DNA of 64,000 bases from NCBI GenBank assembly GCA_963422385.1, contig OY729432.1:1109666-1173665 (forward strand), written 5' to 3'. The stretch comes from Candidatus Binatia bacterium. GTDB lineage: Bacteria; Desulfobacterota; Binatia; UBA9968; JAJDTQ01. Shown here in pieces: positions 6,337 to 60,478 of the stretch. A program made the translations under genes and the position numbers. Each line of letters begins with the position of its first letter. The first letter of the stretch is position 1. A model generated the notes under the pieces. It was not told the DNA's origin. It made no database searches and worked only from the letters and a program-made list of their open reading frames with translations.

Positions 6337-6398
6337 CAGTGTGGTGTCCTATATGAACCGTGGATAATCTGCGCAGGACTTCCATGGTTTATACAGGC
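6337..6398. repeat. Intergenic repeat motif (GTGTGGTGTCCTATATGAACCGTGGATAA) plus an imperfect 16-bp inverted partner, sitting between convergent gene ends
   Basis: A 31-nt motif also present at 30094-30124 (3 mismatches). Here it forms a hairpin with ccatggtttatacagg. Confidence 0.4.
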
Positions 6399-7561
6399 TC
6401 CCAAGGCAGGCCCAGGACTCTCTTGGCGGTGACGTTGCGCTGGATCTCGCTGGTGCCTGCGTAGATGGAGATGCGCCGGACCTCGCGCCACAGCACCGAA
6501 ACGTCCACGGGACCGTCCGGCGTCTCCAGCGCCCCCGCTTCGGCGCCGTGCTCACCGGCCGCCTCCAGCAAGAGGTCGGCAATACGCTGCACGATATCGG
6601 TGGAGACGATCTTGATGAAGGACGAGTCGGCGCCGATCTCCTTGCCCGCCCGCGCGATCCGGACCGCGTGGGCGAACACGGCCGACTGCGCCAGCACGTC
6701 CAGCTCGGCCCTGGTCAGCCGGTCCTGGAACACCGGATCGTCCGCGGCGCCCGTGGCCCGGGCCACTTTCCGCACCCGCTCCAGCATGTCCAGGGCCAGT
6801 TGCGGATTGGCGTTGCCGAGGCGTTCCGAATCCAGCAGCGCCTTGGCCACGCGCCAGCCGTCGTTCAGCTTCCCCACCACGTTGGTGAGCGGCACCCGCA
6901 CGTTGTCGAAGAATTCCTCGGCGAACTCCTCGTCGTCGGCCAGCGTCCTGATGGGACGGATGGTGATGCCCGGCGTCCTGAGATCGATCAGCACCATGGA
7001 GATGCCCGACTGCTTGCGCGGGGCGGCCGGGTCGGTGCGGATCAGCGCGTACATCCAGTCGGCGTGGTGGCCCCCGGTGGTCCAGATCTTGTGACCGTTG
7101 ATGACCAGCTCGTCACCGTCGATCTCGCCCCGGGTACGCAGGCTGGCCAGATCGGACCCCGATCCGGGCTCCGAGTAGCCCTGTGCCCACAACACCTCTC
7201 CCGAGAGCATCCTGGGCAGGTGCTCGGTCTTCTGCTCCTCGGTGCCGTGGCGGATCAGGATCGGCCCGATGTGCCCCACCGCCTGCCGCGACAACACCGG
7301 CGCCTCGGCGCGGCCGAACTCTTCCTGAAGGATCAACTGCTGGTTGAGGGTGGCCTCCATGCCACCGTACTGCTTCGGCCAGTTGGGGGCGATCCAGCCG
7401 CGGTCGTAGAGCTTGCGCTGCCACGGCCGGATCATCTCCGGCGGCGGCCGGGTGGACCATCCCTTCAGTTCCTGCGGCAGATTCTCTTCCAGCCAATCCC
7501 GGACTTCCAGCCGAAACGCCGCGTCGTCCTTGGTGTCCGCGGTGAAGCTGATGGTGCTCAT
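6389..7561 (-). CDS. Acyl-CoA dehydrogenase
   Basis: ACAD N-terminal, middle and C-terminal domain motifs (GYSEPGSGSDLASL, ERLGNANPQLAL...). The start is at MSTISF. Confidence 0.85.
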   Translation of the reverse strand: MSTISFTADTKDDAAFRLEVRDWLEENLPQELKGWSTRPPPEMIRPWQRKLYDRGWIAPNWPKQYGGMEATLNQQLILQEEFGRAEAPVLSRQAVGHIGPILIRHGTEEQKTEHLPRMLSGEVLWAQGYSEPGSGSDLASLRTRGEIDGDELVINGHKIWTTGGHHADWMYALIRTDPAAPRKQSGISMVLIDLRTPGITIRPIRTLADDEEFAEEFFDNVRVPLTNVVGKLNDGWRVAKALLDSERLGNANPQLALDMLERVRKVARATGAADDPVFQDRLTRAELDVLAQSAVFAHAVRIARAGKEIGADSSFIKIVSTDIVQRIADLLLEAAGEHGAEAGALETPDGPVDVSVLWREVRRISIYAGTSEIQRNVTAKRVLGLPWEPV

Positions 7562-7655
7562 GGGGCGCACCCTACCAGATCCGGCCGGGGCGCGCGAGAA
7601 GCCGGAACCGGCGCCGAAAGTTGCCATGTCAGAGAAGGGTAAACCTGTACCGTAT

Positions 7656-7810
7656 GTCCTGTCCGGCTCACCCGGATGCCAACTTACCGGTCATTGTCGC
7701 CGTCGGCTTCGTTGCTCCCCCTCGCGTGGCGCCCGCCACTGCTCGTCGTCATGCCTTGCCGACAACCAAAATCCCTGCACGACTTGACATCCGGGTGAGC
7801 CGGACAGGAC
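7656..7810. repeat. Structured intergenic repeat, copy A: an ~80-nt conserved core inside a 23-bp perfect inverted repeat (7656-7678 and 7788-7810)
   Basis: The core gccgtcggcttcgttgctccccctcgcgtggcgcccgccactgctcgtcgtcatgccttgccgac is about 85% identical to 28953-29036. The flanking arms are perfectly complementary to each other but differ from the arms of copy B. Confidence 0.55.
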
Positions 7811-7824
7811 ACTGCTCCACTGCC

Positions 7825-10014
7825 ATGAGCACCGAAAAGGTCGCGACACTGCTGAATCCCACGAGCGTCGCCATCCTGGGGGCCAGGGAAAACCCCACCG
7901 GATGGACGGCGCGCATCTTCGCCAACCTGACCCGCTTCGGTTTTGACGGGCCGGTGTATCCGGTGAACCCCAACCACGAGCGCATGTGGGGGGTAGAGTG
8001 CTTTCCCGACCTGCGCTCCCTGCCCGCGGTTCCGGACCACCTGGTGGTGATGCGGGCGGCGGCCAGCGTCCCGGGCATCCTTCGGGAAGCCGCGGCCATG
8101 GGCGCCCGCAGCGCCACCCTGTACGCCACCGGCTTCTCCGAGGCCGGCACCGACGCCGGCTGCGCGCTCGAGGCGGAACTGCGAGACGCCATCGAGGAGA
8201 CCGGGCTCGCCGTCTCCGGACCCAACTGTCTCGGCAACCTGTCGGCCCGCGCCCGCGTGCTGACCCTGCCGGACGACCGGGTGCAGGAACTCGTCACCGG
8301 TCCCGTGGCCATGGTAGGTCAGAGCGGCACCACCACGCCCAGCATCGCACGGACCCTCATGGACCGGGGCATCGACGTGAGCTACGTGATCACCAGCGGC
8401 AACGAGACCGGGCTCGTCACCGCGGACTACATCCGATACTTCGTCACCGACCCCGAGATCCGGCTGATCTTCTGTCTCGTGGAGGCGGTGCGCCGGGCCG
8501 AAGACTTTCTCGCCGCCTGCCGTAGCGCTCGTGACGCAGGCAAGCCGGTGGTGGTGCTCAAAATGGGCGTGTCCGAGGGCGGCCGCCGCGCCGCCCTGTC
8601 CCACACCGGCTCCCTGGCCGGTCGGGTGGAGGCCTTCGACGCCGTCGCCGGTCCCGCCGGCGTCATCCGCGTGCAAAGCGCCGACGGCGCGGTGGACGTC
8701 ATCGACTTGCTGCTGCACGCGAGCAAGCCCCGGGGCGAGGGCGTGGGGGCGCTGGTGTACTCCGGCGGTGTGCGCGGCCTGGCCGAGGACGCGGCCGACC
8801 GGCACCGGGTGCCGCTGCCGGATTTCGCGCCGGAAACGCGCGCGCGAATACGGGAACTCCTGGGCGACGGCCAGCCGATCAGCAATCCCCTGGACGCCAA
8901 CGGCTATCTCAACCGCCCCCTCGACGACGTGCTGAACGTCGTGGACGCCGTCTACAACGACCCCGGCGTGGACATGGTCGTTTTTCAGGAAGACCTGCCG
9001 CCCCACGAAGGCGCCAACGATGCCAACCGGCGGCGAGCCGCACGGGTGCTGACGACCCTGGAGGCCATCGACAACCGGTTCCTCGGACCCGGCCGGAAGC
9101 CCTTCGCGCTTACGTCTCCGGCATCCTGCGATCTGACGGATTTCAGCCGCGCCGCCCGGCGCCGCTTTCCGCACGTGCCGTGTCTCAACGAGCCCGAACG
9201 GGCCTTTCGCGCCATCCGCGCGGTATTGGACTACCGGCGGAATTCCCGGGAGGCCGAGGCCGTGACGACGACGGCCCTGCCGGATTCCTTGACCACCCGT
9301 ATCGAAACGCTCCGCGGACAGTCTGCCGCGGCGACCGCGGAATTTCCCCTGACCGAGCCCGAGTCCAAGGAGTTGCTGGGCGCCCTCGGGATTCCCCTGA
9401 GCGAAGAAGGGCTGGCGCGCACCGAGCAGGAAGTGCAGGACATCGCCGAGCGCATCGGCTATCCGGTGGTGGTCAAGGGAGTCGCCGCGGACCTCACCCA
9501 CAAGAGCGACGCCGGCGCCGTGCGTGTCAACCTGGGCGATGCCGCAGCCGTACGACGGGCCTGCCAGGAAGTCACGCGCAACGTAGCGGCTCACGATCCG
9601 GGCATCCACCTGGACGGATGGCTGGTGGCAAGGATGGCCCCGCCCGGGCTCGAGCTGGTACTGGGCATGCAGCGGGACCCCGAGATGGGCGCCGTGGTCA
9701 TGTTCGGCGCTGGCGGAGTGTGGCTGGAGCTCATGAAGGACGTGGCCTTCGGCCCGCCCGGATTGAGCCGCGACTGCGCCGCCCGGCTCATCGACTCGAC
9801 GCGCATCGGCCGGCTGCTGGACGGATACCGCGGCGAGGGACCCTACGACCGCGACGCGGTCGTAGACGCGCTGGTGGCACTGGGCCGGTTGGCGGCCGCG
9901 GCCGGAGACGCCATCGAAAGCCTGGACATCAACCCCTTCCTGGTGTGCCGCAAGGGTGCCGGAGGGCTGGCGCTGGACGCGCTGGCGGTGATCGCCCCAG
10001 CGCGGGAGAGGTGA
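7825..10014 (+). CDS. Acetate--CoA ligase (ADP-forming), an NDP-forming acyl-CoA synthetase family protein
   Basis: A CoA-binding domain, a succinyl-CoA-ligase-like domain and an ATP-grasp domain. The start is at MSTEKVATLL; the upstream part of the listed ORF covers the repeat element. Confidence 0.8.
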   Translation: MSTEKVATLLNPTSVAILGARENPTGWTARIFANLTRFGFDGPVYPVNPNHERMWGVECFPDLRSLPAVPDHLVVMRAAASVPGILREAAAMGARSATLYATGFSEAGTDAGCALEAELRDAIEETGLAVSGPNCLGNLSARARVLTLPDDRVQELVTGPVAMVGQSGTTTPSIARTLMDRGIDVSYVITSGNETGLVTADYIRYFVTDPEIRLIFCLVEAVRRAEDFLAACRSARDAGKPVVVLKMGVSEGGRRAALSHTGSLAGRVEAFDAVAGPAGVIRVQSADGAVDVIDLLLHASKPRGEGVGALVYSGGVRGLAEDAADRHRVPLPDFAPETRARIRELLGDGQPISNPLDANGYLNRPLDDVLNVVDAVYNDPGVDMVVFQEDLPPHEGANDANRRRAARVLTTLEAIDNRFLGPGRKPFALTSPASCDLTDFSRAARRRFPHVPCLNEPERAFRAIRAVLDYRRNSREAEAVTTTALPDSLTTRIETLRGQSAAATAEFPLTEPESKELLGALGIPLSEEGLARTEQEVQDIAERIGYPVVVKGVAADLTHKSDAGAVRVNLGDAAAVRRACQEVTRNVAAHDPGIHLDGWLVARMAPPGLELVLGMQRDPEMGAVVMFGAGGVWLELMKDVAFGPPGLSRDCAARLIDSTRIGRLLDGYRGEGPYDRDAVVDALVALGRLAAAAGDAIESLDINPFLVCRKGAGGLALDALAVIAPARER

Positions 10015-14027: not shown

Positions 14028-14165
14028 TCCCTCCCTTCCGGGAGAGCGGTACGGTGAGATTTGCGTCTACCCTGCCGACGGGTTAGTGTGTCGTTCAGCA
14101 CTTGGCGTCCCGTCCGGTTGATTCGCATGCCTTGACCGGACAGCACACTTGATATCCCGCGTCGC

Positions 14166-25933: not shown

Positions 25934-26075
25934 CCGGCTCGGGGCCTGTGGCAGGGGCGAGCTTGAAACCCGCCCCCGCACCTTGTTGTCGCGGCCTGCC
26001 GACAGTGAGGAGCCCCGCACATGTTGCCGCGCGTAACAGGCCGCCGGTTCCCGTCATGACGAAAGGGAGACAGCC

Positions 26076-28866: not shown

Positions 28867-28911
28867 CGTTCCGGTCCCCTTTCTCCTTCGCAAGATTGCG
28901 CCGGGGAACGA

Positions 28912-29070
28912 GTGTGCTGTCCCACGTATTCTTTCACCAATCTGCTGGTCTTTCTTGCCGTCGGCTGCGTTGCTCCCCCTCGCGTGGTATCGGCCACTGC
29001 TCGTCGTCGCGCCTTGCCGACCACAAGAAATCCTGCGCAGACTGGTGAAAGAATACGTGGGACGGCACAC
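28912..29070. repeat. Structured intergenic repeat, copy B: the conserved core inside a 34-bp inverted repeat (28912-28945 and 29037-29070; 2 mismatches)
   Basis: Core 28953-29036 is about 85% identical to copy A. The arms gtgtgctgtcccacgtattctttcaccaatctgc and gcagactggtgaaagaatacgtgggacggcacac are complementary to each other. Confidence 0.55.
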
Positions 29071-29930
29071 TAACGTCCCGTCAGCTCGCGCGCCCGGTTC
29101 AGCACGGCGAACGAACGCGGCGCGCTGGGCATGAGGAAGCGGTAGCCAGCCTCCACCAGGCGCTCGATGTTGTCGGCGCCGGGATGCGGATGGCCGCAGG
29201 GAACCCCTTGCTCCTTGCAGATATCCAGGATCCGGTTGATGGCGTCGGCCACTACCGGATGGTCGTAATCCCGTGGGTGGCCCAGCTCCTGGCTCAGGTC
29301 CCCTTCGCCAACAAGCACCACTCCGATGCCCGGGACATCCTTGAGCATGGCCGGCAGGTTTTCGATGGCGCGGACCTCCTCGCACTGGATCACCACCAGG
29401 ATCTCGCCGTCGGGCGCCAGCGGCCACACGTCCGCGCGCTTGTAGTACTCCTGCTGGGAGAGCCCCCAGTAACGGGCGGCTCGGGTGGGCGCGTCGCCGC
29501 GGATGCCCGGAGGATCATGGAGCGGAGCGGACGAAAGCCGCGGATAACGGCAGGCCGACACCGCGTTGCGCGCCTCCTCCACCGAGCTGACGTGAGGGAA
29601 AATAATCCCGTAGACGCCGATGTCCAGCACCTGCTTCGCCAGCCACTGGTTCATCTCGTTGCCGTTGGGAGGGATGCGCACCATCGGCGTTACCGCGGGG
29701 GTCAGGGTGCCGCGGTCCACCAACTGCCGCCGGTCCAGCATGTACTGCAACGCGTGCCGCAGCCCCGGAATGTCCAGGGGCGCATGCTCCATCTCGAAGG
29801 CCACGCCGTCGAGCCGGGAACCCGCCATGGCGATGGCGGTCTCGACGTCGTTGGAGGTGAAGCTCACGAAGGCCGTCCTGCCTTCCTCCAGCGCTTTGAC
29901 GACACCGTTGAGACGCGGGATTTCCGCCAT
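29070..29930 (-). CDS. HpcH/HpaI aldolase/citrate-lyase family protein
   Basis: TIM-barrel HpcH motifs (AFEMEHAP, VVLVGEGDLSQELG). Confidence 0.8.
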   Translation of the reverse strand: MAEIPRLNGVVKALEEGRTAFVSFTSNDVETAIAMAGSRLDGVAFEMEHAPLDIPGLRHALQYMLDRRQLVDRGTLTPAVTPMVRIPPNGNEMNQWLAKQVLDIGVYGIIFPHVSSVEEARNAVSACRYPRLSSAPLHDPPGIRGDAPTRAARYWGLSQQEYYKRADVWPLAPDGEILVVIQCEEVRAIENLPAMLKDVPGIGVVLVGEGDLSQELGHPRDYDHPVVADAINRILDICKEQGVPCGHPHPGADNIERLVEAGYRFLMPSAPRSFAVLNRARELTGR

Positions 29931-30045
29931 GAATCACTCCTTGGCCCTTCGACTTCGCTCCGCTACGCTCAGGGCGAACGGCAGATGGTCCTGAGCTTTG
30001 CCAAGCCTATAGCCTGTCCTTCCGGGCTTTGCTAGTGTAATTTCC

Positions 30046-30075
30046 CTTGGAGTCGGGAGACTTGGAGTCGGGAGA
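30046..30075. repeat. 15-bp tandem duplication (cttggagtcgggaga x2) in a divergent promoter region
   Basis: An exact tandem repeat seen directly in the sequence. Confidence 0.5.
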
Positions 30076-30093
30076 CGACACTGGAACACGCTT

Positions 30094-30124
30094 GGTGTGG
30101 TGTCCTGTATAAACCGTGGACAAG
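30094..30124. repeat. Second copy of the 31-nt intergenic motif GTGTGGTGTCCTGTATAAACCGTGGACAA, immediately upstream of the amidohydrolase start
   Basis: 28/31 identity with 6341-6371. Confidence 0.4.
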
Positions 30125-36842: not shown

Positions 36843-38117
36843 TCATGACCGCCCCTGGACGCTCTCGGGCGCGCCCGGCGGCCCCGTGGGGACGCCGGCT
36901 CTGGCTGCGGAGCGTACGGAGGATACGGAACCCGGAGTTGTTGTTCCGGTTTCCGGCAGTGTTCCTGTTACGGTTCGCGGACCGGAGGTTCCTCGGTTTG
37001 TTGTTCCAGGAACCACCGCGCAATACGCGCCGGCAGGGGGACGGTCAGGCTCTCGAGATGGGTCGAACCACCCGTCCCGAAAGATCGCTTGGCGCAAGCG
37101 CCAAGTATTCGCATGTCTGGCATGGGCAACCCAAGCGCCGACCCGTTGCTCGATGTCTGCGCGCGTTACGCGGCCTTCGCGCCAGCGTGCGCGGAGCCCC
37201 CGCAATCGGTTACGGAAGCGGCGCACGTTTGCTTCAGGCAGACGGCGGCTTCCGTCGGGCAGGAGGACGAACCCCAGAAACTCCGCTGGCTCCTTCGTCT
37301 CCATGATCCGAGTCTTGTTCGGATGAAGACGCAGGCGACGGCCCTCCAGGAACCGGGCGATCCGGCGGCGCCAATCTTCGAGACACTCAGGGTCATCATG
37401 AAACAGTGCGAAGTCGTCCACGTAACGCACATAGCCCTTGGCCCTCAGGACTTCCTTGCAGAAGTGGTCCAGTCCATCCAGGTAGAGATTGGCGAAGAAC
37501 TGGCTGGTCAGATTGCCGATGGGCAGGCCGCGTCGGCGCTCGAACGGGGTGAACAGGTCATCGTCCGGATAGTACAGGAGCACCGGCTCCTGTGGATTGG
37601 AGCCATCGACGATGCGGTCGGCCAGCGCCAGCGTGCGGGGGCAGGCGATGCGCCGTCGCAGGTCGCGCTTCAGAATCTTGTGGTCGATGGCCGGGAAGTA
37701 GCGGTAAACATCACAACGCAACACGTGGCGAAAACGGTCGCGAAACCGCTCGTAACGGGCGACGGCCCGGTGTGTCCCCTTGGCCTTGCGGTTGGCGTAG
37801 CTGTCATGGACGAAACCCCGCTCGAAGAGCGGCTCGCATACGGCGCAGAAGGCGTGATGCACCACCCGGTCGCGGAAGGGCGCGGCAGAAACAACCCGGT
37901 GTTTCGGGTCGAAGATGGCGATGGTCTTGTAACGGCCCGGACGGTAGCTCCCGTTTCGGAGTTCCCGCTCCAGCCGTAGCACATCTTTCTCCTGGTTGGC
38001 GAGGAAGGCCGCCACACCCGGCTTGGCCCGCTTGCCCGTGGCCGCGCGCAAGGCCGCTGCCCGCAAGGCGGGGAACGACGTGATGGCGTCAAACAGATCG
38101 TGTGCTTTCTCTGGCAT
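36843..38117 (-). CDS. Diversity-generating retroelement reverse transcriptase. The 3' end of the ORF overlaps the TR, so the true C-terminus is uncertain.
   Basis: YVRYVDDFALF (YxDD) and the DGR-specific IGNLTSQFFANLYL motif (SQ rather than the SP of group II intron RTs). It aligns motif by motif with Bordetella bRT (FRDRVVHHAF..., AWVAHARHANTW). The start is at MPEKAHDLF; the listed ORF carries a spurious N-terminal extension. Confidence 0.85.
   Translation of the reverse strand: MPEKAHDLFDAITSFPALRAAALRAATGKRAKPGVAAFLANQEKDVLRLERELRNGSYRPGRYKTIAIFDPKHRVVSAAPFRDRVVHHAFCAVCEPLFERGFVHDSYANRKAKGTHRAVARYERFRDRFRHVLRCDVYRYFPAIDHKILKRDLRRRIACPRTLALADRIVDGSNPQEPVLLYYPDDDLFTPFERRRGLPIGNLTSQFFANLYLDGLDHFCKEVLRAKGYVRYVDDFALFHDDPECLEDWRRRIARFLEGRRLRLHPNKTRIMETKEPAEFLGFVLLPDGSRRLPEANVRRFRNRLRGLRARWREGRVTRADIEQRVGAWVAHARHANTWRLRQAIFRDGWFDPSREPDRPPAGAYCAVVPGTTNRGTSGPRTVTGTLPETGTTTPGSVSSVRSAARAGVPTGPPGAPESVQGRS
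36911..37030 (-). repeat. DGR template repeat (TR), 120 bp
   Basis: Aligns without gaps to 38641-38760. There are 22 mismatches, and 19 of them have T on the plus strand in the TR, which is A on the coding strand. In the target frame the TR reads RGGSWNNKPRNLRSANRNRNTAGNRNNNSGFRILRT and is rich in AAC (Asn) codons. Confidence 0.85.
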
Positions 38118-38190
38118 GATGCACCCTGCTCCAGGCTCCGATCTTGCGCCCGGTCTCGTCCAGACATCGCGCCGCGTGCTCGTAGCGCCG

Positions 38191-38508
38191 CTAGTCCAGA
38201 CAACGCAAGTCCAGGGCCAGCCGAAAGAGGAACCGCAGCTTCTCGATACCCAGGTTGGACCGGGCCAAGTGATTGCTGCGCTGCCGGGTGTAGGTCGCCT
38301 CGACAAGAGATTCCAGCAAATCCAGCGCAGTCCCCTGAATGCGGTCGCCCAGCAGGAATTTCTGGCTACGGGGGAACCGTTCGACCGTCGGCACCAGCCA
38401 GAGGAGGAAGCGATAGTGAGCCTCCAGCGCGGGACCCGTGTTGCGTGCGCCATCCCTGACGGTTTCTTCCGACGGCGCGCCTCCCTCGGTGGTCGCGTCA
38501 CTTCTCAC
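38191..38508 (-). CDS. Avd-like accessory variability determinant (four-helix-bundle protein)
   Basis: A small, mostly helical ORF between the target and the RT. YRFLLWLVPTVERFPRSQKFLLGDRIQGTALDLLESLVEA fits the Avd/four-helix-bundle family pattern. Confidence 0.6.
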   Translation of the reverse strand: MRSDATTEGGAPSEETVRDGARNTGPALEAHYRFLLWLVPTVERFPRSQKFLLGDRIQGTALDLLESLVEATYTRQRSNHLARSNLGIEKLRFLFRLALDLRCLD

Positions 38509-38587
38509 GAGTCATGCCCGCTTCTCTCTATTCACCGGGGTCTGTTCTTCGGCTTTTCGCCGCACCGATTCACGCCAAATCGTCCAA

Positions 38588-38603
38588 GGGGGCTTCGCCC
38601 CCT
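38588..38603 (-). promoter_or_regulatory. GC hairpin (gggggc-ttcg-gccccc) about 38 nt downstream of the VR 3' end; a DGR homing-associated stem-loop candidate
   Basis: A 6-bp GC stem with a 4-nt loop placed where DGR VR-flanking hairpins and cruciforms occur. Confidence 0.4.
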
Positions 38604-38630
38604 GGACCCCCGAGGTAAAGAGGTAACGAT

Positions 38631-40772
38631 TCATGGGGTGAGCGTCCGGAGGATACGGAACCCGGAGTAGTGGCTCCGGATAAAGGCAGGGAGCCAGCTA
38701 CGGAACGCGGACCGGAGGATCCTCGGCTCGAGGCCCCAGGAACCACCGCGCAATACGCGCTCGCCACAATTACCTGTGTCCCACGCACTCCCATCATTCG
38801 GCGCTCCCTCATAGTCCCCGTTCTCCCCGTTCCAACAATCCTCCACCCACTCCCATACGTTCCCGTGCACATCGTGCAATCCAAAACCATTCACCGCGAA
38901 AATCCCCACCGGTGTCGTCTCCTTTCTATACCGACCTTTGCGGCCTCTACCATAGGTGTAGTTCCCATCGTAATTTGCCTCATTCGTCGAGATCGTCTCT
39001 CCAAAATGAAACGGCCCCATCGTCCCCGCCCTCGCCGCGTACTCCCACTCCGACTCCGATAGTAAACGATATCTCTTTCCCGTCTTCCGCGACAGCCAGG
39101 CAACATACGCCCTGGCGTCTTCCCAGCTTACCTTTATGACCGGGCGATCCCCACGTCCCCAACCCATATCACTCGGCCGATGCCCACCGCACCCGCCGGA
39201 GGAAACGCACGCGTCCCACTCCTCGAACGTCACCTCGTATTTCCCCACTGCCAACGGTTTCGGTATCCTCACCCGATGAACCGGCCCCTCCCTATCTAAC
39301 CGGCCCTCTTCTTGAGACGGCGAGCCCATCATGAACGACCCCGCTGGAATCACCACCAGCTCCGGACACTCCTCGCAGTCACGAAACACCCTCCCCACAG
39401 CTATTCGCTCCCGCTCCTTCGCCTTCGCACTCAGAATACGCGCCTCGCCCGCGTGACGCCCCCCCGGATGCGACGACAGGTACGCTTCATAGGACGCCAC
39501 TGTGCCCGATGACTTCGCCCGCGCAAACGCCGCATCATCCACCCGCTCCCGCTCCGCCCGCCCCGCAGCCATCAGTGTGTCCGCCTGCTCACGGGTGAGA
39601 TACCCCGTCTCCCGCAGCCCCTTGGCCTTCTGCCATGCACCGACCGCAGCACGGGTCTTGCCGACAAACAGCCCGTCCGCTGGTCCCGCATCGAATCGAA
39701 GGGAACTCAGACCGCGCTGCACCAGCACCTTCGCTCCACGGTCCAGACCCAGCCCCTTCTCCACCCCCGCATGATCCGTCGGCGTCGGAGACCGTGAAAC
39801 GACTTCCCTCTCCTCTCTCCTGACCTCCCCACCAAGAACCGGTCGCTTCGGAAAACCCTCGCCGGCGGCCGCTGACAGCACGACCTTCGGTGTTCCTGCC
39901 AACAGGTTGGCCGTCTGCTCGGTCCTGCGCGCAAGCCACGCCGCCGGCGTCATGTAGTCGTCGAGATATTGCTTCGCCTCCACAGCCGTCACCCTGCCGT
40001 CGCCGTCCGCATCACCCTTGCCATAAAGCGCGTCCAACAGATGATGTGTGAACAGGCCGTGCTGCGCCTGCTCATCCCAGTTGGCGAGTTGCTTCGAACC
40101 CGCTGCGGTGAGCACCGTCACCTGCTCCGCGATCGCTTCCGGCAACGCCGCGGCAATGATCACGGGTGACGCGCCCTGAATCAGAAAACCTCCATAGCTG
40201 TTGCCGGTAAAACACGCATCCAAAAATACCTGAACGGACTTCGCGCGGCGCCTGCGGTCGGCCTTGCTCAACTCGTCCAGCCTCTTGTACAGGAGTTCCA
40301 GCGGGTAGCCCTCGTTCCGGGCCTCCCGCGGCGGCACATCGACAGGCAGGAGATAACCCATCCCGTCCTTCAGTCCGGGCACGCCGTGGCCGGAATAATA
40401 GACGACCACGGCGGAGCGCCCCTTGGGGTCGAGCTTCGCCAAGATATCGCTCATCGGGGCGTCGCGACTTCCGAAGACGTTGAGCATTTCCCGCCGTTTC
40501 GCGTTCTTCAGGGAGATGATCTTCGTTGGATCGAAGCCCATGACGTCGATGACGTAGCGCTTGAACGCCTCGGCGTCGCGATCGGCATAGTCGACGTCAG
40601 GAACGCCCCTGTGTGGATAATGCTTGTTGCCGATGATCACCGCCACGCCGTGCGGGTTCCGTACCTCCGCCAAGGCCAACGAGCCGACGACGAGACTCCA
40701 CAGGGCAATGGCCAGGACGGCACGGAAACCCATGGCCCACGCGAAGCGACACGGCAGAATCCTGAATTTCAT
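38631..40772 (-). CDS. DGR target protein: secreted caspase-like (C14) peptidase domain, a peptidoglycan-binding-like segment, and a C-terminal FGE-sulfatase/C-type-lectin-fold domain carrying the VR
   Basis: A signal peptide; the caspase His/Cys dyad context (YYSGHGV, FLDACFTG); and a C-terminal FGE/CLec fold (WGRGDRPVIKVSWEDARAYVAWL...GGSW), which is the usual scaffold of DGR variable proteins. Confidence 0.85.
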   Translation of the reverse strand: MKFRILPCRFAWAMGFRAVLAIALWSLVVGSLALAEVRNPHGVAVIIGNKHYPHRGVPDVDYADRDAEAFKRYVIDVMGFDPTKIISLKNAKRREMLNVFGSRDAPMSDILAKLDPKGRSAVVVYYSGHGVPGLKDGMGYLLPVDVPPREARNEGYPLELLYKRLDELSKADRRRRAKSVQVFLDACFTGNSYGGFLIQGASPVIIAAALPEAIAEQVTVLTAAGSKQLANWDEQAQHGLFTHHLLDALYGKGDADGDGRVTAVEAKQYLDDYMTPAAWLARRTEQTANLLAGTPKVVLSAAAGEGFPKRPVLGGEVRREEREVVSRSPTPTDHAGVEKGLGLDRGAKVLVQRGLSSLRFDAGPADGLFVGKTRAAVGAWQKAKGLRETGYLTREQADTLMAAGRAERERVDDAAFARAKSSGTVASYEAYLSSHPGGRHAGEARILSAKAKERERIAVGRVFRDCEECPELVVIPAGSFMMGSPSQEEGRLDREGPVHRVRIPKPLAVGKYEVTFEEWDACVSSGGCGGHRPSDMGWGRGDRPVIKVSWEDARAYVAWLSRKTGKRYRLLSESEWEYAARAGTMGPFHFGETISTNEANYDGNYTYGRGRKGRYRKETTPVGIFAVNGFGLHDVHGNVWEWVEDCWNGENGDYEGAPNDGSAWDTGNCGERVLRGGSWGLEPRILRSAFRSWLPAFIRSHYSGFRILRTLTP
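38641..38760 (-). repeat. DGR variable repeat (VR) at the 3' end of the target gene, ending 7 nt before its stop codon
   Basis: Counterpart of the TR. It encodes GGSWGLEPRILRSAFRSWLPAFIRSHYSGFRILRT, and every TR Asn (AAC) position is replaced by varied residues. Confidence 0.85.
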
Positions 40773-49260: not shown

Positions 49261-49571
49261 AGCGAGAGGGGCAGGAGGAGCCAGGGAGACACCGGGTTCG
49301 TCAAGAGGCTCCTGTATTTGAAGCGGTCTACCAGCATGGTAGACTTCCCTTGCAGGTCATACTCGGCCAGCCGCAGTTCGGCGCCGTTGCCTTGGAGACA
49401 TTCAGCTTGGGAATCGACTCCGTGAATTGGCGGCTCATTACTGTCGACGCATTCATGATGGCGTAGGCATTGGAGCTTGTCGGTCCACCGCGAACATGCC
49501 CATGTCCAGCGCTCCCTGTGATCCATCCAGACATGGCCGGACCCGCGCCCACTAACGATCGTGCAATGAGG

Positions 49572-49589
49572 CCGGGCCTTTCGGCCCGG
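49572..49589 (+). promoter_or_regulatory. Hairpin (ccgggcc-tttc-ggcccgg) immediately upstream of the csb1 RBS
   Basis: A perfect 7-bp stem about 20 nt before the AGGAG RBS and the 49610 start. Confidence 0.3.
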
Positions 49590-49609
49590 ACCAACAGGAG
49601 AAAACCCGT

Positions 49610-50809
49610 ATGACCATTGACCTACAGACATTACAAACTGCTGTTGCCGGCACGGCCGCAGCGTTCCGGTGCGTGACCACCTATCAGCCGGCAGGAGGTC
49701 CCGGCGACAAGGTATTTCCCCCTACCTACAAAGGCGGGAAATACGCCACCGAGGAGCGAGTCGATCCCGAAACCGGCGAACGCCGACCCTGTGTTCTCCT
49801 GGATTCCGTGCAGTCGCAGGCCAACCGCATGGAACTGGCGTTGCTGGAAGCGCATCGCGCCAGCCAGGTGAGCCTTCCCTTGCTGGTCGCGCGCTTCAAT
49901 CAGGAGGAACTGCTCAAGAAGTTCACCGTGACCAGCCTTGAGGCGCCTCACCGCGTAGCGGATGCCCTTTTCCGAGACAGCCTCCTCGATGGCATGATCT
50001 TTCGCCGGTCAGAAAAGGGGCGAACACTTGACACCGCCGACGTGCGGAACGCCACCGGTCTGTTTGGCCTGTGTCCGACCGCCCTGGTATTCGGGCTGTG
50101 GGACTCGACCGGACCTCGTGGCGGTTCGGGTTGCAAGTTCCAGCGGGCGCTGGTGTCTGAAATAGTTGGGTATGATGCCGTGACGGGGAAGAAAACGTCC
50201 GGCCGCATTGACCCTGCGGAGATCATGCGTGATGCAGCTACGCTCTACGAGCGCAAGTCTGAAGGCGACAACGTGCCGCGCTGGACCTTGAAGGAAGGGG
50301 ACGGCAAGAGGAAGCTCAAGACGGGAAGGCCATCGGCAGCGAATCACGGAAACGTTGTACCCACCATCGCGGATGGCGGATTCACCCTGTCGGGAGCCCG
50401 ACAGACGACTACCTTGTCGCTCGCAGTCTTGCGACGCCTTCGTTTTCCGCTCGATGGAGCCGCCACTTCGAACGTCGCTACCGACCTTGCCGCACGCACC
50501 GCTCTGGCTGCCCTGGGTCTCGCCGCCGGGAGCCTGGCGCGCGTCGATACCGACCTTCGCTCTCGCTGCCAACTGTTCGCGGAGCAAACGCCCGCATGGG
50601 AGTTGCTCGACCACCCCGGTGAACCGCCACGGCAATTCGAACACGGTCCCGAAGACGCGCTCGAACTGTTGGATGAGGCGATCAAGGTGGCCAAAGATGC
50701 CGGCCTGCCGTGGGAGGGTGAGGTCGAATTGACTCCGTCGCCCGACTTGGTCGAACTGGTTCGGCGTAGCCAGGAAATGGCAAGCGCTTCGGAGGCGGAG
50801 CAAGGCTGA
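49610..50809 (+). CDS. cas7: Type I-G (formerly I-U) Cas7, Csb1/GSU0053 family
   Basis: YQPAGGPGDKVFPPTYKGGKYATEER and VLLDSVQSQANRMELAL are recalled signatures of the Csb1 family; the G-rich loop TGPRGGSGCKFQRAL; the gene lies directly upstream of csb2. Confidence 0.65.
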   Translation: MTIDLQTLQTAVAGTAAAFRCVTTYQPAGGPGDKVFPPTYKGGKYATEERVDPETGERRPCVLLDSVQSQANRMELALLEAHRASQVSLPLLVARFNQEELLKKFTVTSLEAPHRVADALFRDSLLDGMIFRRSEKGRTLDTADVRNATGLFGLCPTALVFGLWDSTGPRGGSGCKFQRALVSEIVGYDAVTGKKTSGRIDPAEIMRDAATLYERKSEGDNVPRWTLKEGDGKRKLKTGRPSAANHGNVVPTIADGGFTLSGARQTTTLSLAVLRRLRFPLDGAATSNVATDLAARTALAALGLAAGSLARVDTDLRSRCQLFAEQTPAWELLDHPGEPPRQFEHGPEDALELLDEAIKVAKDAGLPWEGEVELTPSPDLVELVRRSQEMASASEAEQG

Positions 50810-53169
50810 TGTTCGCTCTTGGCATCCGCTACCTGAACGGGTGGTCGATGGCCGCTGCGGACGGAGCGAGAAAGGAGAAGGCCGAATGGCCGCCGCATCC
50901 GGATCGGGTGTTCATGGCCTTGGCCGCGGCCTGGTTCGAGACCGATGCAGACGGCTCCGAAGGGGAAGCCTTGCGCTGGCTCGAAACCTTGCCGCCCCCT
51001 GAAATTGCCGCGTCGGATGCCGAGAGTCGCACCCCTGTCGTCAGCTACGTACCCGTCAACGACCCGAGCCTCGGTCGCAAGATGCCCGCAGGTCAAGACT
51101 TGGACAAGCTCAAGGATGCCGGACTGGGCCAACTGCCGGAGCATCGGTCGCCCCAGCCCCGCGGGTTTCCCGTGGCCATCCCTCGGGATCCGACGGTACA
51201 CCTGATTTGGCCGGAGGCACAGGTGGGCGTGCATCGCGAGGCCCTGGACCGGCTGGCCGCGAAGGTCACCCATGTGGGGCATTCCGCATCCTTCGTGCAA
51301 GCGTGGCTCGAAACCAGTCCATCGCCGCCCGCGTGGGTCCCGGGGACCGGGGTCGCGCGTCAGCGCCTGCGCGTGACGAGCCCTGGTCGCTTGAGGACTC
51401 TGGAAGGGCGCATGAACCGCGAAGCGTGGATCGCCTACCATGACCTTCGCCACGAAATCGAGCAGGCCGAGGCGGACCTCAAGGCGATGAAGCGCCCGCC
51501 AAGGGCGCCTTGGGAGGCATTCCCGGACGTGATTTTGCTGGCCGGCGAAACCCGAACCAGGCGGCATCCCGAGTACGCTGACGCAAAAGCCACCGACGAT
51601 GCTGTGGCCGCGGCCAACCTCGTCAACAGCCTGGTTGACGAAGCGGGGATTGCTGCGGTGCGGACACTGATCGCCACAGTCAGTGAAAGTGGTGAGCCGA
51701 TCCTGGTCAGCGCACATGCATTCGAGCGGCAGGGGCTCAATGCCATTCCCGCTGCCTTGACGAGATTGCTGAGCGAACGACTCCGCATCCCGCGCGAGAC
51801 TACCGTTGTGCAGACGAACGTTGTCTCCCACACGGGTGCAGACGGTTATGGTCGCCTTGCGCGACAAGCCTGTTTCGACGGCCGCATCGAAGCAGGTCGA
51901 GAGTATCTTATGGTGGACGATTTCGTTGGCCAAGGCGGGACCTTGGCCAATCTGCGCGGCTGGATGGAAAAACAAGGCGGTCAGGTCGTCGGAGCCGTTG
52001 CCCTGACCGGCAAATCGTACTCCGCCAAGTTGAACCCTTCAAAGGAGCAACTCCATGAACTCGGACAAAAGCACGGATCAGACTTTGAAAAGTGGTGGCA
52101 GGCGCACTTCGGCCACGCCTTCGATTGCCTTACTCAATCGGAAGCTCGGTACCTCGCCCGCTCCCCGGATGTTGACACCATCCGAAATCGCCTTGCTGCG
52201 GCAAAGCAAGGTGGAAGTGGATCGAGTAACAGGCGAAGTCCTGGCGAGCAAAGACAATACATAAAGGAAATGAAGACACGTCTAAGAGACACCTTCCCCG
52301 ATGGTGAACCCGTAAGCTTGCGCCCTGTACCGGGCCGCTGGCAGGGGTACACAGAGGCATCGAAAGATGGTGACCCTGAAGCACCGGGCCCGGTTTTCGC
52401 CCCGCGGCTCATTGTCCTGGACCTCAAGGGCAGGCGGGTGTCTTTGCCGGCCACGCTCAAGCTCACCGCGGCCCTGCGTGGGCTGTTGATGCGAGAGTGT
52501 GCCGACCAGCCCCCACCCGAGTGGTTCAGCGGCCATCGCACGGACGGCAAGCCAAGCGCCAACCCGCATCTCGCCCTGATACCGCTTCCCTTTGTCGGCG
52601 CCGAGCATGCAGACGGTCGCGTCATGGGTTTGGGTCTCGTACTGCCTGCGGATTTGGACTCATTGGCGGCCGGCCATTGTCTCGAACCGTTCTTGCACGA
52701 GTCGGCTACCGGCTTGCCACGCGAACATCCGTTGTTCGACGGCCAGTGGTTCGAGTGCGCTATCGAGTTGGAAACCCGCGAACGACCGCCGAGGAACCTC
52801 GACCCGAGAACCTGGACGCGGAGATCCTGCGTTTGGGCAAGCGTGACTCCGATCGTCCTGAACCGACACTTCGACGGCAAGGACAAGTGGGCGAAGGCCG
52901 CCGACAGCGTGAAAGACGCCTGCCGGCATATCGGCCTGCCGCGCCCCCGAGAAGTGCTGCTCCACCCGATCTCGCTGGTTGAAGGCGCACCGCACGCCAG
53001 GGACTACCCGCAACTGACCCGCAAGAACGCCGGTGGCGCGCGCAGCCACAGTCACGCGGCGATCATTTTCGACGAACCCGTGCGCGGGCCGGTAATTGTC
53101 GGGGCCGGGCGTTTCCGGGGGTATGGGTTGTGCCGGCCGATGGACGGGGGTGGCCAAGACCGTGGTTGA
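50809..53169 (+). CDS. Type I-G Cas5-Cas6 fusion (Csb2/GSU0054 family) with an inserted phosphoribosyltransferase-like domain
   Basis: N-terminal EWPPHPDRVFMALAAAW...VSYVPVNDP (Cas5 region of Csb2). C-terminal GAGRFRGYGLCRP glycine-rich loop (Cas6-like). At 786 aa it is far longer than the ~500 aa usual for Csb2, and the middle segment carries YLMVDDFVGQGGTL, a canonical type-I PRTase PRPP-binding motif. Confidence 0.65.
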   Translation: MFALGIRYLNGWSMAAADGARKEKAEWPPHPDRVFMALAAAWFETDADGSEGEALRWLETLPPPEIAASDAESRTPVVSYVPVNDPSLGRKMPAGQDLDKLKDAGLGQLPEHRSPQPRGFPVAIPRDPTVHLIWPEAQVGVHREALDRLAAKVTHVGHSASFVQAWLETSPSPPAWVPGTGVARQRLRVTSPGRLRTLEGRMNREAWIAYHDLRHEIEQAEADLKAMKRPPRAPWEAFPDVILLAGETRTRRHPEYADAKATDDAVAAANLVNSLVDEAGIAAVRTLIATVSESGEPILVSAHAFERQGLNAIPAALTRLLSERLRIPRETTVVQTNVVSHTGADGYGRLARQACFDGRIEAGREYLMVDDFVGQGGTLANLRGWMEKQGGQVVGAVALTGKSYSAKLNPSKEQLHELGQKHGSDFEKWWQAHFGHAFDCLTQSEARYLARSPDVDTIRNRLAAAKQGGSGSSNRRSPGEQRQYIKEMKTRLRDTFPDGEPVSLRPVPGRWQGYTEASKDGDPEAPGPVFAPRLIVLDLKGRRVSLPATLKLTAALRGLLMRECADQPPPEWFSGHRTDGKPSANPHLALIPLPFVGAEHADGRVMGLGLVLPADLDSLAAGHCLEPFLHESATGLPREHPLFDGQWFECAIELETRERPPRNLDPRTWTRRSCVWASVTPIVLNRHFDGKDKWAKAADSVKDACRHIGLPRPREVLLHPISLVEGAPHARDYPQLTRKNAGGARSHSHAAIIFDEPVRGPVIVGAGRFRGYGLCRPMDGGGQDRG

Positions 53170-54934
53170 ATCGAACGGCACGGCACGGGAACACGTGCTA
53201 CTGACAGTGCTCGGCACGAACCCGAAGAAGGCATGCTATCGCTTCAAGGACAGGCAGGCGGAGGCCATCCTCGCCCCGATCGCCCTGTATGACTTGTCGC
53301 CGGAAGCAGACCGGCCTGACCGGGTATTGGCACTCTGCACACCAGAGGCAAAGCAGAACAGTTTGCCGCTCCTTGAAGATGGGCTATGCGGTCGGTGCGT
53401 TGTGAAACCGGTTGACATTCCTGCCGGCAACTCTCAGGCGGACGTCCATACTTTCTTGGCTACGGTTGCCGCCGCCATACCGGAGAGAGCCGATCTCACC
53501 GTAGACGTCACCCACGGGTTCCGGCATTTCTCGTTCCTCACCTACATCGCCGTTCTCTACGTATCGGCGCTTCGCGGCATACGGGTACGCGGCGCCTACT
53601 ACGGTATGTTGAATCACAATGAGGCGAGTCCGTTTCTCGATCTGCGTCCGCTTCTGGAACTGCCCCGCTGGCTTCACGCGCTGCAGGTGTTGAACGATAC
53701 GGGGAGCGCCGTGTCCATTGCCAGTATCCTCGATGAGGGTTCCCAAGGACGGGGACCGCGGCTAATCGCAAGGCGTCTATCGCAGTGTCTATCGCAGTGT
53801 CTATCGCAGTTCTCGGAAGCGTACTTGTCCGGTCTCCCGCTCGAACTCGGCCGGCACGCGGCTGAGTTCACGCAGCAGTCGATCAAGCCGTTGAAGAGAC
53901 TGCTCCAGAACGATCACGCGTTACCCCTCGGGGGCGAGTTGGCCGATCAAATAGCAGAGTTCTTCAAGCCGCTGGCCCTGGGATCACAGGCTTCAGGGAG
54001 CGGGTGGAAGCAAAAGGTCGCGCTCTCGAAGGAAGAACTGGAACGTCAGGCCGCAGTTATCGACAACCTGCTGCGCCATGGAAGCGTCACAGCCGCATTG
54101 GGTCTCATGAACGAGTGGACCGTGTCGTGGGTAGTCCGGGTCCGCGACGGGCGCAACAGCGAATGGCTCGACTATCACAATGTCCGTCGCGGCGCCGCGA
54201 GCCTTCTCGGCGCCATGAGGGCCATCGGTAACGACCCTGAACTGCATTGTCTCTTGACGGATGAGCAGCGTTCGCTCGGAGTGTTCTGGGGAGAACTGTG
54301 TGACCTTCGCAACGGATACCACCACCACGGCATGCGCCCGCAGGTTCTGGTCGGCGACGCGCAAACCGGGAAAAAACTTCAGGGTGTGCGGGAATACTGG
54401 ACGACAACGCTCCGCTCATGCCCCGAGAATTTCGGGTTCTCGCTCGGCGATACGTCTGGAGGCCGGGTTCTGGTCAGTCCCATCGGAAAGCGCCCTGGCG
54501 TGCTGTACAGTGCGTTGCGCGCCTGCAGGGACGAAAACGGTAACAGCAGGTTGTCGCGATGCCTCGTCATCTGCTCGCCCGAAACCCGAGGAAAGATCGA
54601 CGAGGCGGTCGAGAACGCGGGGTACAAAGGGCATGTTGAGCCGCTTGTAATCAAAGACGCTTTCGGCGGCGGCTCCGGGGAAATCAGGAGCGTGGTGGCG
54701 AGGGGGCGAAAACATCTCATCGGTGCCGAGGCCGTCTTCGTGAACGTCACCGGCGGCACGACGCTCATGGGCCTTGCTGCCGAAGACCTTGCCAACGCGG
54801 GACGTGAACTTGCCTGCCCGGTGCGCCGGTTCGGCCTGATCGACCGCCGGCCGCCGAGAGAGCAGGAGGCCGACCCCTACCGGGCCGGCGAACCATTCTG
54901 GCTGGACCCGGGAGAAGACAAGAATGCCGACTGA
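53162..54934 (+). CDS. csx1: Csx1/Csm6-family CARF-HEPN protein (DxTHG family)
   Basis: N-terminal CARF strand LLTVLGTN and DVTHGFRHFS (DxTHG signature); C-terminal HEPN-like LCDLRNGYHHHG (R-x4-H). A GTG start at 53162 or 53195 is more likely than the listed ATG 53096, which overlaps csb2. Confidence 0.75.
   Translation: MVESNGTAREHVLLTVLGTNPKKACYRFKDRQAEAILAPIALYDLSPEADRPDRVLALCTPEAKQNSLPLLEDGLCGRCVVKPVDIPAGNSQADVHTFLATVAAAIPERADLTVDVTHGFRHFSFLTYIAVLYVSALRGIRVRGAYYGMLNHNEASPFLDLRPLLELPRWLHALQVLNDTGSAVSIASILDEGSQGRGPRLIARRLSQCLSQCLSQFSEAYLSGLPLELGRHAAEFTQQSIKPLKRLLQNDHALPLGGELADQIAEFFKPLALGSQASGSGWKQKVALSKEELERQAAVIDNLLRHGSVTAALGLMNEWTVSWVVRVRDGRNSEWLDYHNVRRGAASLLGAMRAIGNDPELHCLLTDEQRSLGVFWGELCDLRNGYHHHGMRPQVLVGDAQTGKKLQGVREYWTTTLRSCPENFGFSLGDTSGGRVLVSPIGKRPGVLYSALRACRDENGNSRLSRCLVICSPETRGKIDEAVENAGYKGHVEPLVIKDAFGGGSGEIRSVVARGRKHLIGAEAVFVNVTGGTTLMGLAAEDLANAGRELACPVRRFGLIDRRPPREQEADPYRAGEPFWLDPGEDKNAD
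53766..53801 (+). repeat. In-frame 12-bp x3 tandem repeat inside csx1, encoding (LSQC)x3
   Basis: gtctatcgcagt repeated three times. Confidence 0.5.
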
Positions 54935-56132
54935 AATCGAGGCAACCTATCGTGTCGTCACGCCGATGTTCTGCGCAGGCGCCACTCCCTCTCACGCCGA
55001 AGTTCGCGCGCCCTCCTTCAAAGGCGTGCTGCGCTTCTGGTGGCGGGCGCTGGCATGGTCGCGGCTGAAGGGTGACCTGGAAGCCATCAAGAAAGAGGAA
55101 GACAGGCTCTTTGGAAGCGCGAGCGGCGGTGGTTCGAAGGTGTCGATGCGTGTGGAGATGGACGCGCGTCAGAAAACAGTCCCGCAGAACACAGTACTTA
55201 CTGTTTCCGAAAAAAACCGCACCCCTGTCGGGGAGGGCGCCCGCTATCTCGGCTACGGCGTCATGGAAGCGTTCACGAGCAAGCCGAAGAATACGCGGGC
55301 AGGGCAACTCACGCGTTCGTGTCTCCATGCCCCTTTCGACTTCACTGCTCAAATGCGAGGTCGTAACCTGACTGAGGCGGAATCATCATCACTTAAGGAC
55401 GCTCTGGTCGCTCTGGGAACGTTCGGCAGTGTGGGAGCCAAAAACCGCAGGGGGTACGGCTCGTTGGTCCTTCAGTCTTTGCTTGTTGGTGGAGGCAACC
55501 AGTACCGTCAGCCACAGGACATGACCGGGCTGCATGACGCAATCAAGAAGCTCCAGCCCGATAGTGGGGGGCAAACGGCTCAAACCGGTTTGCCCGAGTT
55601 CACCGCATTGTCCGTGGAAGCGCGTCACCTACTGCTGTCAAGCGACAAGAAGGAACCCATGAATCTCCTGGATCTCGTTGGCCGCGAGTTGATGAGGTAT
55701 CGTAGCTGGGGCCACAACGGAAAGGTACTCGGTCAACCATCAGAGCGTAATTTCAAGGATGATCACGACCTGATGAAGAAGTCGGCTGGAGAGCGTAAGA
55801 CACATCCTCGCCGCATCGCCTTCGGCCTTCCTCACAACTACGGCAAGAGACCGGACCAACAGGTTGGCCCGTATGACAAGAAAACGGACCGTCGCGCCAG
55901 TCCGCTGTTTGTCCACATTCACGAATGTGGTGGTACACCGGTCGCCCTACTGTCGTTCCTCCCGGCCCGATTTCTGCGCAAAGATGGATCGGACGTTTCC
56001 GTCGGGCAAACCCGAATCGCTCACCGTCCAGAGGACGAACTCTACCGCCCGATTCACGACTTTCTTGACCGCCTGCTCGATGAAAACAAGCGGAAGGAAC
56101 AATTTACGGATGTTCAGGAGGTGCAACCGTGA
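54924..56132 (+). CDS. cmr1: Type III-B Cmr1 (Cas7-group RAMP)
   Basis: TPMFCAGA ... RAPSFKGVLRFWWRA, the Cmr1 N-terminal RAMP signature; the start overlaps the csx1 stop. Confidence 0.85.
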   Translation: MPTEIEATYRVVTPMFCAGATPSHAEVRAPSFKGVLRFWWRALAWSRLKGDLEAIKKEEDRLFGSASGGGSKVSMRVEMDARQKTVPQNTVLTVSEKNRTPVGEGARYLGYGVMEAFTSKPKNTRAGQLTRSCLHAPFDFTAQMRGRNLTEAESSSLKDALVALGTFGSVGAKNRRGYGSLVLQSLLVGGGNQYRQPQDMTGLHDAIKKLQPDSGGQTAQTGLPEFTALSVEARHLLLSSDKKEPMNLLDLVGRELMRYRSWGHNGKVLGQPSERNFKDDHDLMKKSAGERKTHPRRIAFGLPHNYGKRPDQQVGPYDKKTDRRASPLFVHIHECGGTPVALLSFLPARFLRKDGSDVSVGQTRIAHRPEDELYRPIHDFLDRLLDENKRKEQFTDVQEVQP

Positions 56133-60071: not shown

Positions 60072-60478
60072 GGACCATCGAGCAGGAACGTGCGGCAAAC
60101 GCCCTTGGACGTGTAAACAAATTGAGTAGTGAGACCAACGACTTCAAAAAGCGATACAGAAGCTATGTCGACCGCCTCGGACCGACCATCGTGCTGAACG
60201 GTCTGGGCCAGGCACTGGCTACCGAGCGCGCTACGGCCGGCTCAGAACCGAAGGAACCGGACGAAAAGGCGCACCAGATGCTTTATGACAGCTTGCAGAG
60301 CTGGCTTTGCCGCGACGATGGCGTTTATCCGCCCGGCAACGATCTCTTGCAGGTTCTCATGGAGAAGGACGAAGTGCTTTACCTCCGCGCCCAGGCCGAA
60401 GCGCTGGCATGGCTTGAGTGGCACAAGAAATGCTGCCGAGCCTCGTTCCCGAAAAGCGATCCAGGAGACAAGCCGTGA
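60068..60478 (+). CDS. cmr5: Type III-B Cmr5 (Cas11 small subunit)
   Basis: A 136-aa helical protein positioned between cmr4 and cmr6 with coupled ATGA/GTGA overlaps. Confidence 0.7.
   Translation: MRTIEQERAANALGRVNKLSSETNDFKKRYRSYVDRLGPTIVLNGLGQALATERATAGSEPKEPDEKAHQMLYDSLQSWLCRDDGVYPPGNDLLQVLMEKDEVLYLRAQAEALAWLEWHKKCCRASFPKSDPGDKP

Follow-up and report, generated by a model that had tools for sequence, protein, structure and literature searches.

Correia elements (CREE/NEMIS) of Neisseria duplicate a TA dinucleotide at their target, and mobilisation by IS630-Spn1 has been proposed for the RUP elements of Streptococcus pneumoniae. REPINs carry a GTAG head, do not duplicate their target and are associated with a tyrosine (HUH) transposase (RAYT, TnpA-REP). 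Correia elements are MITEs, about 104-157 bp in length, whose long terminal inverted repeats can form one hairpin and whose short forms derive from internal deletion; their copies are located near gene starts and can supply promoters (PMC3184786). RUP, 107 bp long, is a MITE with target duplications and TIRs of the classic kind, while bcr1, found in the Bacillus cereus group, is a mobile repeat of about 155 bp where compensatory changes keep the double-stranded structure (PMC3184786), thus providing a precedent for compensatory change in a mobile palindrome. The hallmarks of IS630/Tc1-mariner elements are insertion at TA, duplication of these 2 bp and a bias towards CTAG; in ISY100, the one bacterial member of the IS630 family that has been studied in vitro, the transposase footprint spans the entire 24-bp inverted repeat (PMC2170065).

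The window, i.e. the whole 64-kb stretch of Binatia-like DNA analysed here, contains two full and three partial copies of a repeated sequence, reported in Table 1 together with the related features. With a probability of about 0.8, the two full copies, A and B, are MITEs (non-autonomous DNA transposons), ~160 bp long, resembling Correia and RUP elements and belonging to the IS630/Tc1-mariner type that duplicates TA. The family is recently active, non-coding and mobile; as a MITE family it is new, of a kind already known. Its one uncommon trait is a stem that varies among sub-families yet remains self-complementary.

Table 1. Features of the repeated sequence family, of its relatives and of neighboring systems. 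Positions refer to the window or to the related loci, indicated by L numbers.
Feature	Location	Strand	Remarks
Copy A, full-length MITE, A-type arms	window 7655..7812	+	inverted-repeat detection, DNA fold, empty sites in relatives
Copy A, left tip	window 7655-7664		
Copy A, left arm	window 7665-7682		
Copy A, core	window ~7689-7774		
Copy A, right arm	window 7784-7801		
Copy A, right tip	window 7802-7812		
Copy B, full-length MITE, B-type arms	window 28912..29070	+	inverted repeat, DNA fold, spacer comparison
Core-less H-type derivative (GTGTGGTGTCCTATATGAACCGTGGA-TAATCTGCGCAGGACT-TCCATGGTTTATACAGG…)	window 6339..6403	+	on ACAD stop codon
Core-less 63-nt type-2 derivative	window 14086..14148	-	upstream of selA; TA at 14084-14085
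Relics upstream of aldolase gene	window 30035..30120	-	
Solo H-type arm	window 30095-30120		within the aldolase-upstream relics
Degenerate mini element	window 30035-30081		adjoins TA 30033-30034
ACAD-stop hot spot	window 6389-6403; L025/L026 11159-11342; L027 11159-11163		
Copy C	L001 2293-2451 (OY282432.1)		arm differs from both A and B
Copies D, E, F, G	L014 (21 kb)		4 full copies; ACAD 95% identical to the window's
Full and half copies	L025, L026, L027		5, 4 and 2 full copies, plus half copies; one identical ACAD protein in the three contigs
Single copy	L033		cut by contig end
Type 1 arm, CACAAATACGCTTAYGAA	copies D, E, F; five more in L025-L027		
Type 2 arm, GGTTAATTCGCATGGCAA	two loci in L025 and L026, one of these also in L027; right arm of G		
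Arm types A, B, C, H			1 or 2 copies each
Nested REP-like hairpins	L014 13819-13998, 16684-16867		
Nested REP-like hairpins	L025 1369-1547, 11161-11340, 12552-12734, 13838-14020, 16832-17058		also L026/L027 orthologues
Similar REP-like hairpin	window 25950-25985		free-standing
REPIN-like palindrome, GTAGGTCGGATTAGCCGAAGGCGTAATCCGACATC … GATGTCGGATTACGCCTTCGGCTAATCCGACCTAC	L014 ~9640-9760; L028 ~9790-9925		large; in ACAD-ACS spacer
Other intergenic repeat family, CAGGCTGTGTCAAAAC … CGTCATTCCCGCGAAAGCGGGAATC	L025 11343-11400, 12737-12800; L026 12580-12620; L015 5440-5500		recurs beside several MITE insertion sites
Diversity-generating retroelement (DGR)	window 36843-40772	-	
DGR reverse transcriptase ORF	window 36843-38504		
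DGR template repeat (TR), 121 nt	window 36910-37030		
DGR variable repeat (VR)	window 38640-38760		
CRISPR-Cas cluster	window 49556-64000		looks like type III-B plus other components

Both full copies are present where the first-pass annotation had located them, as arms, core blocks and fold all bear out. The arms described there, 23 bp and perfect in A, 34 bp with two mismatches in B, proved slightly longer when measured: the inverted repeat of copy A spans 28 nt with one mismatch, 24 of them perfect (7655-7682/7784-7811), and that of copy B spans 35 nt, the two mismatches being retained (28911-28945/29037-29071). Inverted repeats of 28-35 bp are found at both ends of copies A, B and C, and the length of the element varies between 157 and 184 bp, reaching 227 bp when three hairpins are nested within it. 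Of the core blocks, the longest two, CGTTGCTCCCCCTCGCGTGG and GCCACTGCTCGTCGTCNNGCCTTGCCGAC, have exactly two occurrences each in the 64-kb window, against 0.07 and 0.00 expected respectively, and the single-strand DNA fold, compared to shuffled sequences, gives z = -5.9 for copy A and z = -11.0 for copy B.

The element may be described as one long imperfect palindrome, made up of three zones: conserved tips of 11 bp (GTGTSSTGTCY), the next ~17 bp, variable but matching the partner arm, and a conserved central region of ~90 nt. In A and B the tips read (G)TGTSCTGTCC … GGACRGSACAC, the first G of the element being missing from the left tip of copy A; the linkers AATCTGC… and …GCAGACT and the core of ~90 nt are also shared, while the stretch of 17-18 nt between tip and linker is unrelated. 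The claim that the arms differ between copies, except at the tips, therefore stands: identity is 32% for the arms between tip and core, against 82% for the tips and 82% for the core.

Evidence for mobility comes from the comparison of filled and empty sites. The site following the ACAD stop codon is empty in L027 (cccTAgcagg) and filled in L025 and L026 (cccTA[GTGTGG…CCACAC]TAgcagg), with flanks otherwise identical; in full, gggtctgcccTAgcaggctg in the former becomes gggtctgcccTA[GTGTGGTGTC…GACACCACAC]TAgcaggctg in the latter, which corresponds to an exact TA duplication. The ACAD stop TAG is an insertion hot spot, observed in three states: empty, occupied by a full type-1 element, or occupied by a core-less H-type one. 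Within the ACAD-ACS spacer, copy E of L014 is located at GACAC-TA-GCAGATCC, a site which is empty in L015, L028 and the window itself (~7570-7580). Similarly, the site of copy A, GCC-TA-TACTCC, is unfilled in L014, L015 and L028, the junctions in the window being CCGTA[TGTCC…GGACAC]TGCTCC. Since each of the two sites is empty in relatives, A and E are independent insertions in the same spacer.

Copy A is flanked by TA at 7653-7654 and by TG at 7813-7814, the latter being read as the decayed half of a TA duplication. Copy B occupies the TA of the stop codon of the aldolase gene, where the TA at 29071-29072 and the element base at 29070 re-form a TAG on the minus strand; its other flank, GA at 28910-28911, is decayed. 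The spacer between the aldolase and nitroreductase genes measures 203 nt in the window; in L023 it has 58 nt and in L024 90 nt, too short in both to accommodate an element. In several older copies the flanks are CA or TG instead of TA; these probably reflect decay as well, and fewer clean duplications are counted for this reason. More generally, the presence or absence of copies varies between near-identical strains.

Insertion takes place at TA dinucleotides, often in a CTAG or other YTAR context, and the TA is duplicated. In a small sample of five sites, the context is CTAG for the post-ACAD-stop site, for copy E and for the selA site (in L015), CTAT for copy A and TTAG for copy B. The window, with a GC content of 63.7%, contains 1016 TA versus 2110 expected, a two-fold depletion, and 14 CTAG versus 214 expected, a 15-fold depletion; it is this scarcity of TA and CTAG in a 64% GC genome that makes the copies gather on stop codons and AT-rich promoter boxes. 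Copies in fact often occupy a TAG stop codon or a TATACT box, in either orientation, and both orientations relative to local transcription are represented, in agreement with the earlier remark that orientation is independent of the neighboring genes. The first-pass annotation had considered a MITE-like element with a stem under selection, and had suggested a search for target-site duplications: the duplicated TA, the empty sites in relatives, the strain polymorphism and the multi-copy sub-families with identical arms all support the MITE-like reading.

On the basis of their arms, the copies fall into at least six types, two of which are multi-copy. Type-1 arms are identical at three or more unrelated loci, and type-2 arms occur at two or more loci. 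The arm types are graded homologues, with 29-59% identity: averaged over pairs of five types, identity is 43% in the arms, against 84% (range 68-100%) in the tips, 72% (57-91%) in the linkers and 82% (74-91%) in the core. One C/A mismatch between the arms (…TTACGAA vs …TTATGAA) is common to type-1 copies at three unrelated loci, indicating that arms are inherited through transposition and not rebuilt each time. Regeneration of the arms by snap-back synthesis at each transposition was rejected on this ground. Arms copied from the target site were also considered and discarded: no likeness to the flanks of empty sites was found, and loci that are unrelated share the same type-1 arms.

Copy G is chimeric, with a type 1 left arm and a type 2 right arm, versus type 2 on both sides in its orthologues in L025-L027. 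The same copy (L014 16640-16900) is flanked by a direct repeat of 19-21 bp, CAAGACCAT(G/AC)CTCCGCCTA, not present in the orthologues. A type-1 copy may have taken part in its origin, through gene conversion or recombination. Several MITE cores contain nested REP-like hairpins headed by GTAG (GTAGGGGCGACCGCCGGTCGCCCC, GTAGGGGCGGGTTTCAAACCCGCCC), always replacing the same TGCTC spot. The REPIN-like palindrome listed in Table 1 is missing from the window and from L015.

In order to evaluate covariation, the hairpin of copy B was mapped onto nine copies, defining 48 long-range pairs. Pairing involves about 90-91% of the cells, a share that drops to 32-47% once the partner is displaced by 1-3 columns. 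Both sides change in 23 of the 48 pairs and one side only in three, and none of 500 shuffles matches any of the five covariation measures, although only about six independent arm lineages, and hence few events, lie behind these statistics. Variant pairs pass almost purely from one Watson-Crick pair to another, with ~5 G-T cells vs 64 cells changed on both sides. Covariation persists at pairs located 41-46 nt from the ends, pair 46/185 being CG in three copies, GC in three and UA in two; that it extends 46 nt inwards favours, as an inference from the alignment, a constraint on the DNA-level complementarity of the whole palindrome over a pair of protein-binding sites or an RNA fold. Pairing could be maintained because an extruded hairpin is selected for in the course of mobilisation, or through templated correction of the quasi-palindrome. 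Target-site duplications are present as in a plain MITE, but they are accompanied by compensatory changes, which a plain MITE had been expected to lack.

Covariation might also be taken to indicate a structured RNA, one of the two readings of the first-pass annotation. It would be a cis-regulatory hairpin, an RNase III site or a sRNA, with a stem selected for RNA folding and copies acting as functional paralogues. In its favour, high stability is predicted for the hairpins as RNA (about -77 to -104 kcal/mol), the covariation is strong, the core retains a C-rich CUCCCCCUC motif, and copy B, being located within a co-directional gene pair, must be transcribed. However, the same motif becomes CUCUUCCUC in types 1 and 2, G-U pairs are nearly missing among the variant pairs, and orientation is arbitrary, as copy B is antisense to its operon and the L025 copy at 11161 is sense. 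TA duplications and insertion polymorphism among near-identical strains also argue against it. An Rfam search, one of the checks proposed at the outset, gave nothing real: with Rfam 15, no match at the gathering score was obtained in the window or on copy C (locus L001), and the only matches on copy A were chance ones with miRNA precursors (E > 0.5). Selection for RNA folding is consequently regarded as very improbable, and the structured RNA claim was abandoned in favour of the transposon.

Coding and regulatory roles were evaluated separately. A small peptide was rejected, as the ATG of copy A corresponds to GCG in B and no conserved ORF exists. No sigma-70-like promoter or intrinsic terminator scores above the scan threshold in or beside A or B. 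The insertion of copy A split a TATACT box, kept by relatives ~12 nt upstream of the ACS ATG. The sole arm mismatch of A creates a perfect TTGACA (7784-7789), located 18 nt before GACACT (7808-7813), with the ACS start codon at 7825; the pair scores 9/12 but, GACACT being a poor second hexamer, the TTGACA-18-GACACT combination remains below the promoter-scan threshold. A replacement promoter for ACS within copy A is possible.

The partial copies in the window consist of core-less derivatives and relics. The third copy tentatively placed at 14128-14150 corresponds to the right end of the core-less derivative upstream of selA; the core-less copy at 6339-6403 and the relics upstream of the aldolase gene are additional to the first reading. 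At the selA site, L025 (1369-1547) and L026 carry a type-2 element of full length, and L015 is unoccupied. As the full-length copy occurs at the same site, the simplest reading of the 14086-14148 sequence is an apical deletion of the full-length element. The H-type derivative, located on the ACAD stop codon, extends the ACAD ORF by four codons (WEPV), so that the protein is 390 aa long in the window versus 386 aa elsewhere. At the site of the degenerate mini element (30035-30081), mini hairpins of 47-55 nt are found in L023 and L024.

These short forms could alternatively point to a mosaic, where a hairpin made of tips plus arms is the primary mobile unit and the ~100-nt core is a second element, inserting at its apex. 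Core-less hairpins with the same tips are present in the window (6339-6403, 14086-14148) as well as in the more distant L023 and L024, which contain no full copy; moreover, GTAG-headed REPs do nest in the core at one fixed spot, and a short CTGC repeat bounds the core. A mosaic origin is nevertheless quite improbable: the 14086-14148 site is full-length in L025 and L026, apical deletion being simplest, recent insertions are whole units of 160-180 bp with TA flanks, and no core was seen outside arms in the loci scanned by nhmmer and blastn.

For a single transposon family, the following mechanism may be proposed. The element would be cut and pasted by a DDE transposase that is specific for TA, belongs to the IS630/Tc1-mariner type and acts in trans. 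Selection for mobility may keep tips and core, while the remaining arm might need only to pair as DNA, drifting through compensatory change or templated palindrome correction. Apical deletions give rise to core-less mini hairpins, such as those detected, and REP-like hairpins are nested inside some cores. No transposase gene was revealed by Pfam in 53 of the 55 candidate ORFs of the window, stop-to-stop ORFs many of which are probably shadow frames, and the other two contain the nitroreductase and aldolase genes. Similarly, no full-length IS with matching tips was found in the window, and neither such an IS nor a transposase gene was seen among the tip matches in ~300 kb of related loci.

One transposase recognising all sub-families, whose arms differ at positions 12-28, would be atypical. 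Each arm type could instead bind a cognate transposase of its own, its arms matching each other as protein sites and the core being homogenised by gene conversion. TIR identity is a normal consequence of transposase binding, the ISY100 footprint does span the whole inverted repeat (PMC2170065), and sub-families do recombine, as in the chimeric copy G. On the other hand, very close relatives would need at least six different transposases, of which none was seen; covariation at 41-46 nt from the ends exceeds any IS630-type footprint, and the arm types are homologous to varying degrees (29-59% identity) instead of being unrelated modules. Separate cognate transposases are for these reasons rather unlikely.

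As to how a single enzyme could act on all types, mobilisation might depend on structure rather than on arm sequence, an extruded hairpin or cruciform being recognised through the 11-bp tip duplex and the apical core. To our knowledge no structure-specific mechanism of this kind has been described for IS630/Tc1-mariner transposases, and the proposal is considered unlikely. If true, any stem of ~17 bp would be accepted provided that it pairs, and the core would act in cis as a signal for transposition.

The distribution of the family was evaluated on related contigs, collected through ACAD and aldolase homologues and members of the ACAD cluster, and scanned by blastn and with an nhmmer profile. 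Some 20 additional copies were detected, all of them in close relatives, and the family thus appears confined to a narrow, uncultured Binatia-like lineage. A 20-mer from the core has one match, copy C, among 185,579 species genomes, in a closed 'Candidatus Binatia' MAG (OY282432.1). A core 18-mer gave 11 matches in metagenome contigs, none of them real, and only chance matches in coding DNA over viral and metagenome contigs; no match was obtained by blastn of the plasmid collection. Full copies are present in some close relatives and absent from others: none is found in the loci L015-L024, where ACAD or aldolase is 88-92% identical, nor in L028 and L031 (genomes of 5.4 and 5.1 Mb) and L032, where ACAD is ~95% identical. 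Even between close relatives, then, the occurrence of the family is patchy.

Two other systems are present in the window. In the diversity-generating retroelement, the variable repeat forms the 3' end of a gene for a protein with caspase, PG_binding and FGE-sulfatase (C-type-lectin fold) domains, and all 21 TR/VR differences inside the repeat are changes of a TR adenine to another base. A relationship of the MITE with a retron or DGR was rejected, as the only RT of the window (36843-38504) has its own TR/VR pair and MITE copies are located in loci without RT. The CRISPR-Cas cluster encodes Cas_GSU0053, Cas_GSU0054, RAMP proteins, Cas10/Cmr2, Cmr3 and a Cas3-like helicase.

Interpretation as a transposon would explain long intergenic hairpins in Binatia-like genomes as transposon copies, rather than riboswitches or sRNAs. 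It would also account for oddities of the window, namely the four additional ACAD codons, the stop codon rebuilt from TA plus an element base, and the split TATACT box of ACS. With tips and core conserved and a covarying stem, the copies form a natural data set for testing arm pairing versus arm sequence in MITE mobilisation; that tips and core are strongly conserved while the stems covary freely deserves specialist attention.

The element may be compared with known repeat families. Like REPs and REPINs, the Binatia-like element is a hairpin-forming intergenic repeat with co-evolving halves; unlike them, it has TA duplications and tips starting with GTGT, the GTAG-headed REPs being separate sequences, nested in its core. 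For bcr1, which is transcribed and has direct repeats of 5 bp, the structure is discussed as one of RNA, whereas the element described here shows TA duplication and a pattern of pairing at the DNA level. RUP, IS630 and ISY100 are alike in TA insertion with a 2-bp duplication, but no partner transposase was found here, and 11 bp are conserved versus the 24-bp repeat contacted by the ISY100 transposase. The likeness to Correia elements lies in the architecture, with a hairpin formed by long TIRs and deletion forms. They are functional analogues only: the host belongs to a different phylum (Binatia-like, not Neisseria), there is no sequence similarity, and the 26-bp inverted repeat of Correia elements is unrelated to the GTGTSSTGTCY tips. 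In addition, no IHF site or promoter is demonstrated in the Binatia-like element. Finally, the inverted repeats of Correia elements are nearly uniform, whereas arm positions 12-28 vary here from one sub-family to another, each variant being matched on the other arm.
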